Positions 18,030-21,823 are shown, counted from the first letter of the stretch. The stretch: 28,488 bases of DNA from Deinococcota bacterium (GCA_039025155.1 JBCCOX010000001.1:1-28488); one strand, 5' to 3'. Made by a program: numbers and translations. Notes: a model not told the origin generated them from the letters alone.

Positions 18030-18800
18030 TTAGCTGACAACGGCCTCGAGCTCACACTCCGTCTGCTGGTCAGCCATCTCGTCAAGGCGACCTGCTTCCA
18101 GCTTTGCGCGGTTGTAAACCCGCAAGGCTTCATCTTCAGTCAGTTGTGTAAGGCTCTTGATGTCACGTCCAGTCACCTGCTTGGCATAACCGTAGTGACT
18201 TTCCGTGGTTAACCCAAGCTTACTTAAAGCTCGGTGCATCTCCGCAGCACGCTCTCGTGACAAGGTGCCATCTGACGTTAATCCTGTCCCCCGTTGCCCT
18301 TTGTGGTAGTCCTTAGCAATCTTTGCGTTTGGTAAGACTTCGGTGGAGGGTGGTAACTTGGCAAACCTAAGCACAGGCTTACCTGTGATTTTCTTTTTCT
18401 CGTCATCGTAAGCAACCCATTGATCATCAGCATCGTAGAGGTAGCGACCAAGACCAAACTTGCTGCACGCACGCTTGAACGCTTGTGCTTCAGCAGTGGG
18501 ACCTTTTGCACCAAAGGTATCGTCTTTGACTTCACCTGTTGATGAGCGCATGACCGAGTAAATCGTCAAGCGGCAAATGAGTTTGTGCTCACCCCACGGT
18601 TGGAAACTGCACTCCCAGGCACCGGGAGCAACCTCATCAAGCCTTGCTTCGTATACGCGTGGGTCAGCGTAAGGCAGGGCTAGACATTTCTTCTTATCTC
18701 GTGTTTTGTTCCCAGCCCGCCATTCAATAGCGGACTCAGGGAAGGGTGCAGCTAGTGCTAGTAGTACTTCATTCCAATTGATGTTGTTGCAATCGTTCAT
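18030..18800 (-). CDS. Rad52/Rad22-family ssDNA annealing protein (Sak/DdrA-like)
   Basis: LAAPFP..IEWR, YADPR...RLDEV..GAW, CRLTI, QAFKRACSKFGLGRYLY. Confidence 0.88.
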   Translation of the reverse strand: MNDCNNINWNEVLLALAAPFPESAIEWRAGNKTRDKKKCLALPYADPRVYEARLDEVAPGAWECSFQPWGEHKLICRLTIYSVMRSSTGEVKDDTFGAKGPTAEAQAFKRACSKFGLGRYLYDADDQWVAYDDEKKKITGKPVLRFAKLPPSTEVLPNAKIAKDYHKGQRGTGLTSDGTLSRERAAEMHRALSKLGLTTESHYGYAKQVTGRDIKSLTQLTEDEALRVYNRAKLEAGRLDEMADQQTECELEAVVS

Positions 18801-19030
18801 GACATAACCTCCTCAGGTAAATGGACTACTGGCTTAGTGAATGGGTTTTGAATAGTTGGGTCGTTGAAGTTGAATATAGGTTCATGGATCGGCTCAAGTG
18901 GGACTTCAATAACTGCTGAGCCATGACACTCAGGGCATTCAGCAGGTAACTCGTGGTCGAGGTCGACGCGAATCCAGACTTTGCCAGGTTCAGGATCGCC
19001 GCAATGGGGGCATGCTTTGAATGTAGTCAT
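18797..19030 (-). CDS. Small zinc-ribbon protein
   Basis: CPHCG...CPECHG. 4-nt overlaps with both neighbours. Confidence 0.6.
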   Translation of the reverse strand: MTTFKACPHCGDPEPGKVWIRVDLDHELPAECPECHGSAVIEVPLEPIHEPIFNFNDPTIQNPFTKPVVHLPEEVMS

Positions 19031-19440
19031 GCTGTTACTAGCGACGCACGCTCAAGCACCTGGGTACCTTCAAAGTCATCAGTTTCTTGTTGTGGACGAA
19101 TCACAACCCAAGCTTTCTCCTGAGACTCAAATGGTATGAACATAACAGCCATACCAAACCAGCCCAGAACGGTATTACCTAGCTTGTGAATCTTGTCTTG
19201 GCGGGTTGCCGTGTCCACGGTACGTGCTTCACCACGGGCAACAGCGGCGGCAATCTCAGCACCGAGAACTTCAGTCTGGTGTGACTCTGGCTCGTACTGA
19301 ATGGTTTTTAACAACTTCTGGTAATTTTCTGCTACACTCATAACGTTTCCTTTCTGCTTGAAGACCAGATGGGGAGCGACATTTTCTACTCCGACCAAGT
19401 GGGTTAGGCTCCACTTGGTCATCTTTTTTGCGTACTGCAC
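19027..19440 (-). CDS. Hypothetical protein (alternative start ATG at 19341)
   Basis: Stop overlaps the next gene by 4 nt. RBS-like sequences precede both 19440 and 19341. Confidence 0.55.
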   Translation of the reverse strand: MQYAKKMTKWSLTHLVGVENVAPHLVFKQKGNVMSVAENYQKLLKTIQYEPESHQTEVLGAEIAAAVARGEARTVDTATRQDKIHKLGNTVLGWFGMAVMFIPFESQEKAWVVIRPQQETDDFEGTQVLERASLVTA

Positions 19441-19498
19441 AACCTCCTTTCACAATTCCACCCGCACAGCAAGGCTGTGCTACTGCCACCCTGAGATG

Positions 19499-20380
19499 TC
19501 ACATGAGGAATCCGTCACGACGATTCTCCTCAATGAGCTGCCAATCTGGTTCTGGCTGCTGTTGAGGGAGTTGCTCGAGTATCTCGTCAGCCACTGAGCA
19601 TGCCCGCTGGGCACAGTCGAGGATAGTGTCAACGGGTTCTTCTTCACTGTCTTCACCCGCAGCACCCCAACCTGCAAGGTAAGCAAACGAGAAGGGACTG
19701 GTGTCCATACCCAGCGCGTCACAGACGATGAACGCCACGCTTTCCGCTTCCAGTTCTTTGATGTAAGTTTCCTTGCGCACGCCGTCTGTGTGCATGAGTG
19801 CGTGGGCTAGCTCGTGGATGAGTGTGGCCAGGTTGTTGAATGGTGAGCGGTCATTACGCAGCACAATCTTGTTATCCATTGGCGAGAAGTAACCTTCAGC
19901 ACCGCCGTCAATCGTTTTTGTCTCTATCTTGATGTCTCGAGCCTTAGCAAAGCTCATGAGTGCTCGCGTGATTGGCTTAACGTTGGCGGGTTCACCTTGC
20001 AGCAGCTGCGGCGCTGGCAACGTTGGCACAGTTTCGCCGTCTGTCTGGGACACATCGAAAACAGATGCAGCACGAAAGCCAAAGACTTCAGACTCACCGT
20101 CGTCACCTTTTCTGGTCATGGGCACAGTAATTCGCAAGGCTTTCTGTCCTTTGAGCACTTGCCTGCCTGCTTCCTTCCACTTGCTGTAACCAGCTACGAG
20201 CGTGGCGGTAGGACACTGCGCCCAGATGAGCCAGACATTGCGGAAGCTGTAGGCGGTTTGGAAGGTGCGCCTGAATCTGAGTGCTGCCTTGAAGTCATCA
20301 GCGTTAAATAACTTGTGGACGTTCTCAGCGAGGATTTCAGCGGCTTTGTTGGTACGTTTGGGTGTGGATTCTGCTATCAT
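19499..20380 (-). CDS. ardC: ArdC-family ssDNA-binding/antirestriction protein with HExxH metallopeptidase-like domain
   Basis: YSFRNVWLIWAQCP.AT.VAGYSKWK..GRQV.KG.KA, VFDVSQTDG, LIHELAH, ELEAESVAF. AAAGGGAG RBS before 20380. Confidence 0.85.
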   Translation of the reverse strand: MIAESTPKRTNKAAEILAENVHKLFNADDFKAALRFRRTFQTAYSFRNVWLIWAQCPTATLVAGYSKWKEAGRQVLKGQKALRITVPMTRKGDDGESEVFGFRAASVFDVSQTDGETVPTLPAPQLLQGEPANVKPITRALMSFAKARDIKIETKTIDGGAEGYFSPMDNKIVLRNDRSPFNNLATLIHELAHALMHTDGVRKETYIKELEAESVAFIVCDALGMDTSPFSFAYLAGWGAAGEDSEEEPVDTILDCAQRACSVADEILEQLPQQQPEPDWQLIEENRRDGFLM

Positions 20381-20523
20381 GAGACTCCCTTTCAAGTAGG
20401 ACAGGAACGGGATTGACTGTGTTAGCGCACAGTCTTTTTACTGGCGTAGTACTGTCTCCTTTCATTTGGAATTGCTGCTCTCACCTGCACAGCCTTGCTG
20501 TGCTAATTGCTTATCTGCACACC

Positions 20524-20557
20524 AAAAGAAAAGCCCCGACGCGTGAACGCCGAGGCT
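20524..20557 (-). terminator. Intrinsic terminator after the 206-aa ORF
   Basis: AGCCTCGGCG-TTCA-CGCGTCGGGGCT followed by TTTCTTTT on the minus strand. Confidence 0.6.
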
Positions 20558-20576
20558 AAAGAAGTGACTCGAGCCA

Positions 20577-21197
20577 CTAGGCAAGACCTAGCAACTCGCA
20601 CTCGTAGTCGAAGTTTTCCCGTGGGTCGTCATGCCAACAGACAGTCGAGTCGATAAACTCACCGTTGCAGAACACAGCACCAAAGCCAGCGTTGCGACTG
20701 GATGAATCGAAGTGTGCTGTCTCGCCTGTTTCGACACTGGCTTCTTGGAAGGTGAAGTCGCCCAGGTCATAGTCTGGATTGTGTTGGAAGCGCTGCGCTT
20801 GCTCCCAAGTTACAGATGAAGGATATTGCTCGAGCCAGCTTGTGCGACCGTTGACGATGCACTTGACCTTGCGAAACTCAGACCGCACAGGACGCTTTTT
20901 GTGTACTGAAGGCTGAATGGCCCGCATGGTTTTCTTTGGCTTGGGAAGCGTGTCAGCCAGCTTAGCAACTGCGTAGGCAACTGCGAGCGCTGCTTCCCGG
21001 TCTTCTGGTTCATGGTCAACGAGGACACGCCCACCACGGATACGGTGCTCTGCTGCTTCCTGAAGCGCGAGACGTGAACGGTCACAGTGTTTCCAGAGGT
21101 CACGAAGATGCTCGAGCATGGAAAGCTTGCAGTAGGTGTGCTGCCCCTGAAGTTCCAGAGGCAGATGATTAACAAACTGAGAGACAGACAGATTCAT
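20577..21197 (-). CDS. Hypothetical protein
   Basis: 206 aa with normal composition. ATG overlaps the upstream stop (ATGA) and a terminator follows. No family recognised. Confidence 0.65.
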   Translation of the reverse strand: MNLSVSQFVNHLPLELQGQHTYCKLSMLEHLRDLWKHCDRSRLALQEAAEHRIRGGRVLVDHEPEDREAALAVAYAVAKLADTLPKPKKTMRAIQPSVHKKRPVRSEFRKVKCIVNGRTSWLEQYPSSVTWEQAQRFQHNPDYDLGDFTFQEASVETGETAHFDSSSRNAGFGAVFCNGEFIDSTVCWHDDPRENFDYECELLGLA

Positions 21198-21823
21198 GAC
21201 TGCTCACCCCCGCGAAACAGAGGGCAGGAAGCAGGCGACCAACGATAGCAATGAAAGCCAGCCAGTTTTGCAGCGTGCCAGCAGCCCTGACCCAGCGAAG
21301 GCAGGACAGAAAGCGACGACGCAAACACAAAGACCGGAACGCGACGCGCACAAAGACCGAGAGAGAAGAAAGTACCACGCCCGACCGAGTCACCCACGAA
21401 CGCCACAGCAGCAGTGAGCCGACCAGATGTGCCGATGAGACGTGACCGACCGAACAGCGCACCCGCTGCCTGCTGGCGAGTGCAGCCCGGCAAAGCAGAC
21501 CCAAACCGAACAGGCACACCCGCTGAGACAGCCGCAGAGACCGAAGGACGAGCAGCCACCGGACAACCAGCAACCAACTGCCACGCAAGCACCACCAGCG
21601 ACGAATGACGGACAGCAGCAGGTGCAGAAGGCAGGCAAGCGAGAAGTGATTCCAGCGCCCACGAGTCAGGACCGACAGCACCACCCGCAGCGATGCCGAG
21701 ACCGTCAGCAACGCAGCGTGACACAACACGATGAACAGCAAGACGAAAAGATTCAGAACACGAGCGCGAACCAAGCACCCAAACGAAACCACCAGCAGGA
21801 CGAGATTTGCGAGATACAGCCAC
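21194..21823 (-). CDS. DprA/SLOG-like Rossmann-fold protein
   Basis: VLGSRS, GGAVGPDS..LE, 'FGRSRL', AVAF, GRGTFFS fit the DprA/SLOG pattern. Coupled to the next gene. Confidence 0.6.
   Translation of the reverse strand: MAVSRKSRPAGGFVWVLGSRSCSESFRLAVHRVVSRCVADGLGIAAGGAVGPDSWALESLLACLPSAPAAVRHSSLVVLAWQLVAGCPVAARPSVSAAVSAGVPVRFGSALPGCTRQQAAGALFGRSRLIGTSGRLTAAVAFVGDSVGRGTFFSLGLCARRVPVFVFASSLSVLPSLGQGCWHAAKLAGFHCYRWSPASCPLFRGGEQS

Follow-up and report, generated by a model that had tools for sequence, protein, structure and literature searches.

A nearly adenine-free DprA-like gene and its neighbours in a possible establishment module of a Deinococcota lineage

The subject of this work is a run of six co-oriented genes on the minus strand of a 28,488-bp contig from a Deinococcota bacterium; the entire contig was analysed and is referred to below as the window. 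It belongs to a fragmented metagenome-assembled genome (MAG) of 5.0 Mb (G000; 766 contigs, 81% complete), which was compared with three others (G001, G002 and G003), so that four species of one genus, represented by MAGs of 81–95% completeness, were covered. The run extends from 22264 to 17990 (~4.3 kb), and the sense strand of its first gene, which encodes a DprA-like protein, is almost free of adenine. The whole run is considered here as a possible establishment module of an exchangeable element.

The gene run and its products

Six open reading frames (ORFs) lie within positions 21823–18030 of the minus strand. They are the DprA-like gene (21823–21194; 209 amino acids (aa), GTG start), orf206 (21197–20577; 206 aa), the ArdC gene (20395–19499; 298 aa, likely ATG at 20380), orf137 (19440–19027; 137 aa), orf77 (19030–18797; 77 aa) and the gene of a Rad52/Erf-type annealing protein (18800–18030; 256 aa). 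A preliminary description had listed DprA/SLOG-like, ArdC and Rad52-like genes with three unknown ORFs, several of them translationally coupled, and no transfer genes in view. All six ORFs are present, the coupling is borne out by 4-nt ATGA overlaps at three junctions (21197/21194, 19030/19027 and 18800/18797), and a check of the full contig for MOB and type IV secretion genes found none within the window. A terminator-like hairpin (20557–20532, minus strand) separates orf206 from ArdC, and the same junction is interrupted in G002 by an HTH gene and a 108-aa gene. The run thus holds at least two transcription units, one comprising the DprA-like gene and orf206 and the other ArdC and the later genes.

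With almost no adenine, stop codons cannot occur in any frame, and all three frames of the DprA-like strand are in fact open, so the openness of this ORF is no evidence by itself. The evidence comes from substitution patterns. Compared with G002, differences at the three codon positions number 27/16/86, and of the codon changes 80 are synonymous and 25 non-synonymous; other genome pairs agree. These patterns show that the ORF is a real gene under purifying selection in this frame.

An AlphaFold2 model of the 209-aa protein, built from an alignment of only nine sequences, had a predicted local distance difference test score (pLDDT) of 86.9 and a predicted template modelling score of 0.83. When this model was compared with the PDB using Foldseek, the top 12 matches were DprA chains and ShosA (E 1e-5 to 2e-4, TM 0.53–0.56), followed by MoCo-carrier, YpsA and LOG proteins. 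The closest solved structures are those of DprA (4LJK, 5MLL, 3UQZ and 3MAJ), to which the sequence identity is 15–18%, and of the DprA-like antitoxin ShosA (8ZVA). The protein remains below the cut-off of Pfam PF02481 (17.0 versus 29.6 bits); members of the same short family having normal composition pass it with 33.7–54.7 bits. A profile search of 1.84 billion representatives gave 162 relatives, stand-alone DprA cores of ~180–210 aa with the motifs GSR, GGAxG(I/A/P)D, R(N/S) and SRG(S/T), and residues G18, R20, G47, G51, D53, R126 and G150 are invariant in 44 diverse family members. The modelled fold and the family links confirm the first gene as encoding a real minimal DprA-fold protein. It shares with DprA/Smf (PF02481) the Rossmann-type SLOG fold and the conserved family motifs, and differs in consisting of the core domain only (~200 aa), without sterile alpha motif or winged-helix domains. 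It also differs in its A-free codon alphabet and in its location on accessory DNA besides the normal host dprA, a full-length canonical gene with ordinary base composition. By analogy with DprA, binding of single-stranded DNA (ssDNA) or loading of RecA is its putative role.

The third gene is a solid assignment to full-length ArdC, with a predicted ssDNA-binding N-domain and an HExxH protease. The N-domain (PF08401) was detected at residues 46–98 with 36.7 bits against a cut-off of 22.6; further Pfam matches are the M78/zincin families PF06114 and PF20573, both above their cut-offs, and PF18818. The HExxH motif reads HELAH, and the protein matches the anti-restriction family phrog_7245 over its full length (7.5e-24). 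Identity to plasmid ArdC, found in 2565 PLSDB records, is 37–40% over 81–87% of the length; 1251 of these plasmids are conjugative and 803 mobilizable (2054/2565). Protection of incoming DNA from type I restriction is the function predicted by analogy.

By its family matches, the last gene encodes a Rad52/Erf-type single-strand annealing protein. Pfam PF04098 (Rad52/22) was matched at residues 102–136 only (25.4 bits, cut-off 20.3), and the Erf-like phrog_1097 over residues 12–167 at 1.5e-22. Relatives of this protein are known from the Thermus phages MN1, phiYS40 and TMA and from Deinococcus and Thermus plasmids. A phmmer search of ArdC and the Rad52-like protein against PDB sequences gave no match.

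The three remaining ORFs have no Pfam, PHROG or NCBIfam match above threshold. Linked to the DprA-like gene in G001–G003, orf206 has only 4 homologues among 5.8 billion proteins, one of them on a contig that has the same length (9281 nt) as the contig carrying P0007 and is possibly identical with it. The AlphaFold2 model of its product (pLDDT 58.6) is confident only for residues 1–88, and a structural search gave no significant fold match (best Z 4.5); the NADAR/YbiA rows in its results (Z 4.0 and 3.2) were too weak to be counted as evidence, and an Atlas search with scores below 0.9 was uninformative. A homologue of orf137 with 44% identity occupies the same position in G003 (G003:C154), and because of it orf137 probably starts at the ATG at 19347 and encodes 106 aa. 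The product of orf77 contains a CxxC...CxxC zinc ribbon, for which only sub-threshold matches were obtained; its identity to the G003 and G001 counterparts is 86% and 63%, respectively, and its gene adjoins the annealing gene in both. The suggestion in the preliminary description that these ORFs are anti-defence candidates found no support, as there are no family matches and the structural search with the 206-aa protein gave no significant fold match.

A different set of partners was observed in Desulfobacterota (L134, L135, L137, L139 and L130), where a conserved protein of ~323 aa without a Pfam match is encoded directly downstream of the A-poor gene. This protein follows the DprA-like gene in 10 loci, with a 183-aa protein and an AAA ATPase further downstream.

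Upstream of the DprA-like gene there is a conserved fold-back of 213 nt (21866..22078, minus strand), which forms a long imperfect hairpin. The TTGAC box of its proximal arm (21899–21894) pairs with GTCAAGCC of the distal arm, and the inner part contains a GGGGG/CCCCC hairpin and two direct repeats. Folded as DNA, the window sequence reaches -41.6 kcal/mol (z = -2.69), a value that none of 200 shuffles equalled; both arms are conserved in G000–G003, and the consensus structure retains the stems. The resemblance to the Frpo/ssp single-strand promoters (PMC13478746) may serve as a lead rather than a result. The direct repeats in the loop are two exact 14-nt copies (GTTTGTTGAGTTAA), 20 nt apart, at 21935–21968, and two 30-nt repeats (CATGAGTGACTCGAGCCA core), 44 nt apart, are situated upstream of the fold-back at 22121–22194. 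Both kinds of repeats could be protein-binding sites or an oriT-like region. An Rfam search around the module was negative.

Divergence, neighbours and routes of transfer

The DNA identity of the module to that of G002 is 78.6% and 80.2%, compared with 94.5% for the adjoining chromosomal flank, and the neighbouring genes are variable. Genes of MazF, a binding protein and a CDF transporter and then an HNH gene are found upstream in the window, PIN_2 and ABC ATPase genes in G002, and an HNH gene directly adjacent in G003, which has a different downstream flank as well. In G001 (L007, G001:C29, 3361-6207), the A-free gene is separated from orf206 by inserted genes of a GmrSD type IV restriction enzyme and of a PIN toxin pair, and the annealing block is on a separate contig. 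In other phyla, the genes adjoining relatives of the first gene encode serine recombinases, tandem tyrosine integrases, Eco57I-type enzymes and N6/N4 methylases, and they include N6-methyladenine (m6A) restriction-modification genes. The module is far more diverged than its flank and has variable neighbours, among them toxin and defence cargo, which indicates that it behaves as exchangeable accessory DNA.

The small HNH nuclease of the window (26617–26943, plus strand) shows weak YajD/ZorE-like matches. Since its homologue directly adjoins the module in G003, the 4.3 kb lying between in the window (22270–26550, with the MazF-like, binding protein and CDF transporter genes) looks like inserted or variable cargo.

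ComEC and dprA were found in all four genomes, and this makes entry by DNA uptake possible. Spread through host DNA uptake, as proposed in the preliminary description, is therefore no more than permitted by the gene content, and hitching via an unrecognised oriT is equally possible by analogy with known systems. Relaxase-free islands carrying only an oriT (iOriT) have been described (bioRxiv 10.64898/2026.01.13.699239), and Thermus transjugation is a push-pull transfer in which donor push is combined with recipient competence (PMC5365140). The module resembles these systems as accessory DNA with counter-defence genes, for which relaxase or mating-pore genes were not found, and it comes from the phylum in which donor push and recipient competence are documented. 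It differs from them in that no oriT or TdtA-type translocase was identified at the module and its transfer is putative.

The same region might be a prophage or phage-satellite remnant. In that case a temperate Deinococcota phage, now degraded, would have left behind its recombination and early module, consisting of the annealing protein, the HNH nuclease, the ArdC-like anti-restriction protein and the DprA-like protein. The annealing-protein relatives in Thermus phages MN1, phiYS40 and TMA fit this explanation, as do the PHROG families available for both ArdC and the annealing protein and the small HNH gene, which adjoins the module in G003 and is 4.3 kb off in the window. Nevertheless, we regard it as unlikely: the window lacks genes for a capsid, terminase, portal or integrase, searches of INPHARED and IMG/VR gave no match to the DprA-like family, and ArdC relatives are overwhelmingly plasmid-borne.

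Rather improbable, in our opinion, is a resident repair island serving against desiccation or radiation damage, which would be vertically inherited and non-mobile and would include a DdrA-like Rad52 protein, an IrrE-like metalloprotease and an extra DprA. The Rad52-family DdrA is a repair protein of Deinococcus, the C-domain of ArdC also matches the IrrE-like M78 family, and the parts of the module occur in all four species of the genus. However, such an island is difficult to reconcile with ~79% identity where the flank has 94.5%, with variable flanks and internal insertions, or with first-gene relatives beside recombinases in other phyla; the full-length match is plasmid ArdC and not IrrE. 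A role in DdrA-type damage repair, to which the preliminary description alluded, gained no support either, and no operator resembling the radiation/desiccation response motif (RDRM) was found near the module.

Adenine depletion of the first gene

The A-poor tract (21194..21900, minus strand) includes the leader, with its Shine-Dalgarno (SD) sequence GGGGG and GTG start, and the DprA-like coding sequence (21823–21194). The latter has 6.5% A, with 0–8 A per 60 nt. Single-base counts on the plus strand at 21151–21900 are the lowest of any 300-nt interval of the genome (13–26 versus a median of 75), and the tract is the most extreme single-base depletion in the 5-Mb G000. The second most base-depleted stretch of this genome (G000:C246:6451-6650), a C/A-rich and T-poor tract of 200 nt, does not resemble the DprA-like gene and probably represents a low-complexity linker.

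The most A-poor case is the G001 gene, with 0.5% A and no NNA codon, the product of which has 59% identity to the window protein. The 844 nt between a conserved GGGCTTGACT box and the stop codon contain seven A, two of which belong to the invariant Asp codon and the stop codon; the ribosome-binding site is GGGGG and the start is GTG. Proteins of the close homologues consist almost solely of F, L, S, C, W, P, R, V, A and G, precisely those residues that can be encoded without A.

Among 104 loci from metagenomes and GTDB genomes, ~100 have 0.5–12% A in the gene and 22–33% in the flanks, a proportion to be read with the fact that the query itself is A-poor and favours A-poor matches; members with ordinary composition exist (L045, L107 and L132; P0018 and P0031). 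The A-poor loci belong to Deinococcota, to Margulisiibacteriota, Saganbacteria and WOR-1, and to Syntrophobacteraceae, Desulfoferrobacter and Desulforhabdus of Desulfobacterota. The depleted tract is gene-sized (450–950 nt), and in ~50 long loci the depletion ends at the gene borders. At four-fold sites of 85 non-redundant relatives, the share of A is 4.6% compared with 22.4% in neighbouring genes and that of T is 47.5% compared with 28.9%; the GC content at third codon positions (GC3) is unchanged (0.479 versus 0.487). Because these sites lose A five-fold, the choice of amino acids alone is an insufficient explanation. The remaining A is mostly in CAG, and GA, TA and AC are under-represented in the 85 relatives. 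The depletion persists despite synonymous turnover, as the window gene and that of G001 differ at 118 of 203 third positions.

Judging by these base counts, the depletion is a one-strand exchange of A for T rather than an effect of GC content, a deamination signature or a consequence of amino-acid choice. It may be concluded that the near absence of A in the sense strand is apparently maintained by selection at the nucleotide level. Literature searches for adenine-free genes gave nothing relevant, and no report of such genes among the leading genes of plasmids was found. That the A poverty has no function in expression, being a by-product of strand-specific mutation or of selection for an unusual protein composition, is the least probable of the explanations considered here. 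In its favour, the mechanisms proposed below are hypothetical, the protein is almost wholly built of ten amino acids having A-free codons, and family members of normal composition exist. It is contradicted by the loss at synonymous four-fold sites, the A-to-T swap at constant GC3 (the opposite of deamination), the stop of depletion at gene borders, its survival through synonymous turnover and its recurrence in three phyla of different base composition.

A possible role in the establishment of incoming DNA

Leading regions of conjugative plasmids carry anti-defence genes and ssDNA promoters (PMC11541004, PMC13478746). On balance, we favour the reading that the run from 22264 to 17990 is the establishment module of an exchangeable element in this Deinococcota lineage, composed of genes for single-stranded or newly arrived DNA, the A-free first gene of which would be expressed while the nucleic acid is under attack or coated. 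In the proposed order of action, the short first operon behind the fold-back, perhaps read from ssDNA, would yield a minimal DprA-fold ssDNA binder and the orf206 product, and the DprA-fold protein would coat ssDNA or pass it to RecA. ArdC would then bind ssDNA and counter restriction through its protease, and finally the zinc-ribbon and Rad52/Erf-type annealing proteins would aid recombination into a resident replicon. The DNA might enter by hitching on the machinery of another element, by push-pull transfer of the Thermus type or by plain transformation.

As in conjugative leading regions (ardA/ardC, ssb and psiB; Frpo/ssp; PMC11541004, PMC13478746, PMC8708921), ssDNA-binding and anti-restriction genes are co-oriented here, ArdC is a bona fide member of the set, and the first gene is immediately preceded by a conserved fold-back. 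The differences are that oriT, relaxase and type IV secretion genes were not detected at the module, that the first gene encodes a DprA fold and not SSB or PsiB and is nearly adenine-free, that a Rad52/Erf-type annealing protein is included, and that the fold-back has no canonical -35/-10 elements and is not significant in two relatives. A leading region lies beside an oriT on an element that has, or is served by, relaxase and mating-pore genes, and these were not found in the incomplete MAGs studied. The establishment and anti-defence reading of the preliminary description thus stands in part: the gene content, the plasmid distribution of ArdC relatives, the module divergence and the recombinase neighbours speak for it, but with no oriT, att site or integrase found at the module, leading-region status is putative.

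Several observations weigh against this establishment reading. Neither an oriT, att site or integrase nor a flanking repeat or tRNA was found at the module. Pfam PF03432 (relaxase) and PF02534 (coupling protein) were not found in G000, nor PF03135 (VirB4) and PF08751 (relaxase) in G000–G003; because the four genomes are incomplete MAGs, the missing transfer genes are weak evidence, being "not found" and not "absent". The DprA-like family had no match among PLSDB plasmids (tblastn with the DprA-like protein, two family members and orf206), INPHARED phages (tblastn, one member) or IMG/VR (scan). A long-resident island would likewise agree with the presence of the parts of the module in each of the four species. 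The folds of the upstream region in G001 and G002 are not better than shuffles (z = -1.0 and -1.1), canonical -35/-10 spacing was not found in the fold-back, and covariation is nearly nil. The SD sequence and ATG retain A in most other lineages. On the same message as the A-poor gene, orf206 has normal composition, so that a whole-transcript explanation is incomplete. Finally, the enzyme DarT, considered below, is encoded in only 2 of 22 carrier genomes, a weak association.

As to why A is avoided, we think it most likely that the first gene must be expressed while its nucleic acid is under attack or coated. A T-free ssDNA template would be spared by T-directed enzymes or by T-preferring ssDNA binders, including the product of the gene itself; alternatively, an A-free message would be resistant to A-dependent RNases. 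DarT performs thymidine ADP-ribosylation on ssDNA at the TNTC motif (PMC5179494). A DarT-immune template is compatible with the avoidance of GA, which reads TC on the template, and with the fact that G001, the most A-poor case, has DarT. A UV-proof template, on which thymine dimers could not form, was considered but abandoned, since the carriers were mostly sampled from anoxic sediment, groundwater and digesters.

These considerations may be extended, tentatively and with considerable doubt, to an entry kit of a relaxase-free ssDNA element. Its first gene would represent an undescribed class, occurring in at least three phyla, from the sense strand of which A has been purged so that the T-free template or A-free message stays usable during modification, cutting or coating ("immunity by composition"). 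DarT-type thymidine ADP-ribosylation, A-specific RNases and the DprA-like product itself may be the agents avoided. In principle, this is similar to the escape of engineered ACA-less mRNAs from MazF (PMC9102682) and to the avoidance of restriction sites, where a sequence is stripped of an enzyme's target. The difference is that here a whole nucleotide and not a motif is lost, and the protein is reshaped to about ten amino acids.

If the establishment reading is true, the leading-region idea would no longer be confined to conjugative plasmids but would take in small exchangeable islands of a phylum that moves DNA mainly by competence and push-pull transfer. The DprA-like gene and its partner, together with those of ArdC and the annealing protein, would then be a testable set of genes for survival on entry. 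Immunity by composition would, if true, be a new principle. The A-free gene is an experimentally tractable puzzle and its product a natural reduced-alphabet protein, which folds with only some ten amino acids since one base may not occur in its nucleic acid. Identification of the avoided agent would disclose either a new level of defence and counter-defence or a rule by which genes are expressed from ssDNA.

The rest of the contig consists of ordinary accessory genes, including those of a STAND NTPase, a halogenase, hydrolases, MerR and AraC regulators, Phd/PIN and MazF-type toxins, a CDF transporter and a PAS kinase. Repeated GGCTCGAG motifs were considered as a feature of the element and rejected, as they are not element-specific. 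The palindrome CTCGAG occurs 10,140 times in the 5.0-Mb G000, about eight times as often as expected, and often (1798 times) as GGCTCGAGC. Its examples in the window (22132, 22176, 22283, 20564, 20828 and 26901) are not module-specific, and it has the appearance of a highly iterated palindrome spread over the whole genome, much like HIP1 in cyanobacteria.

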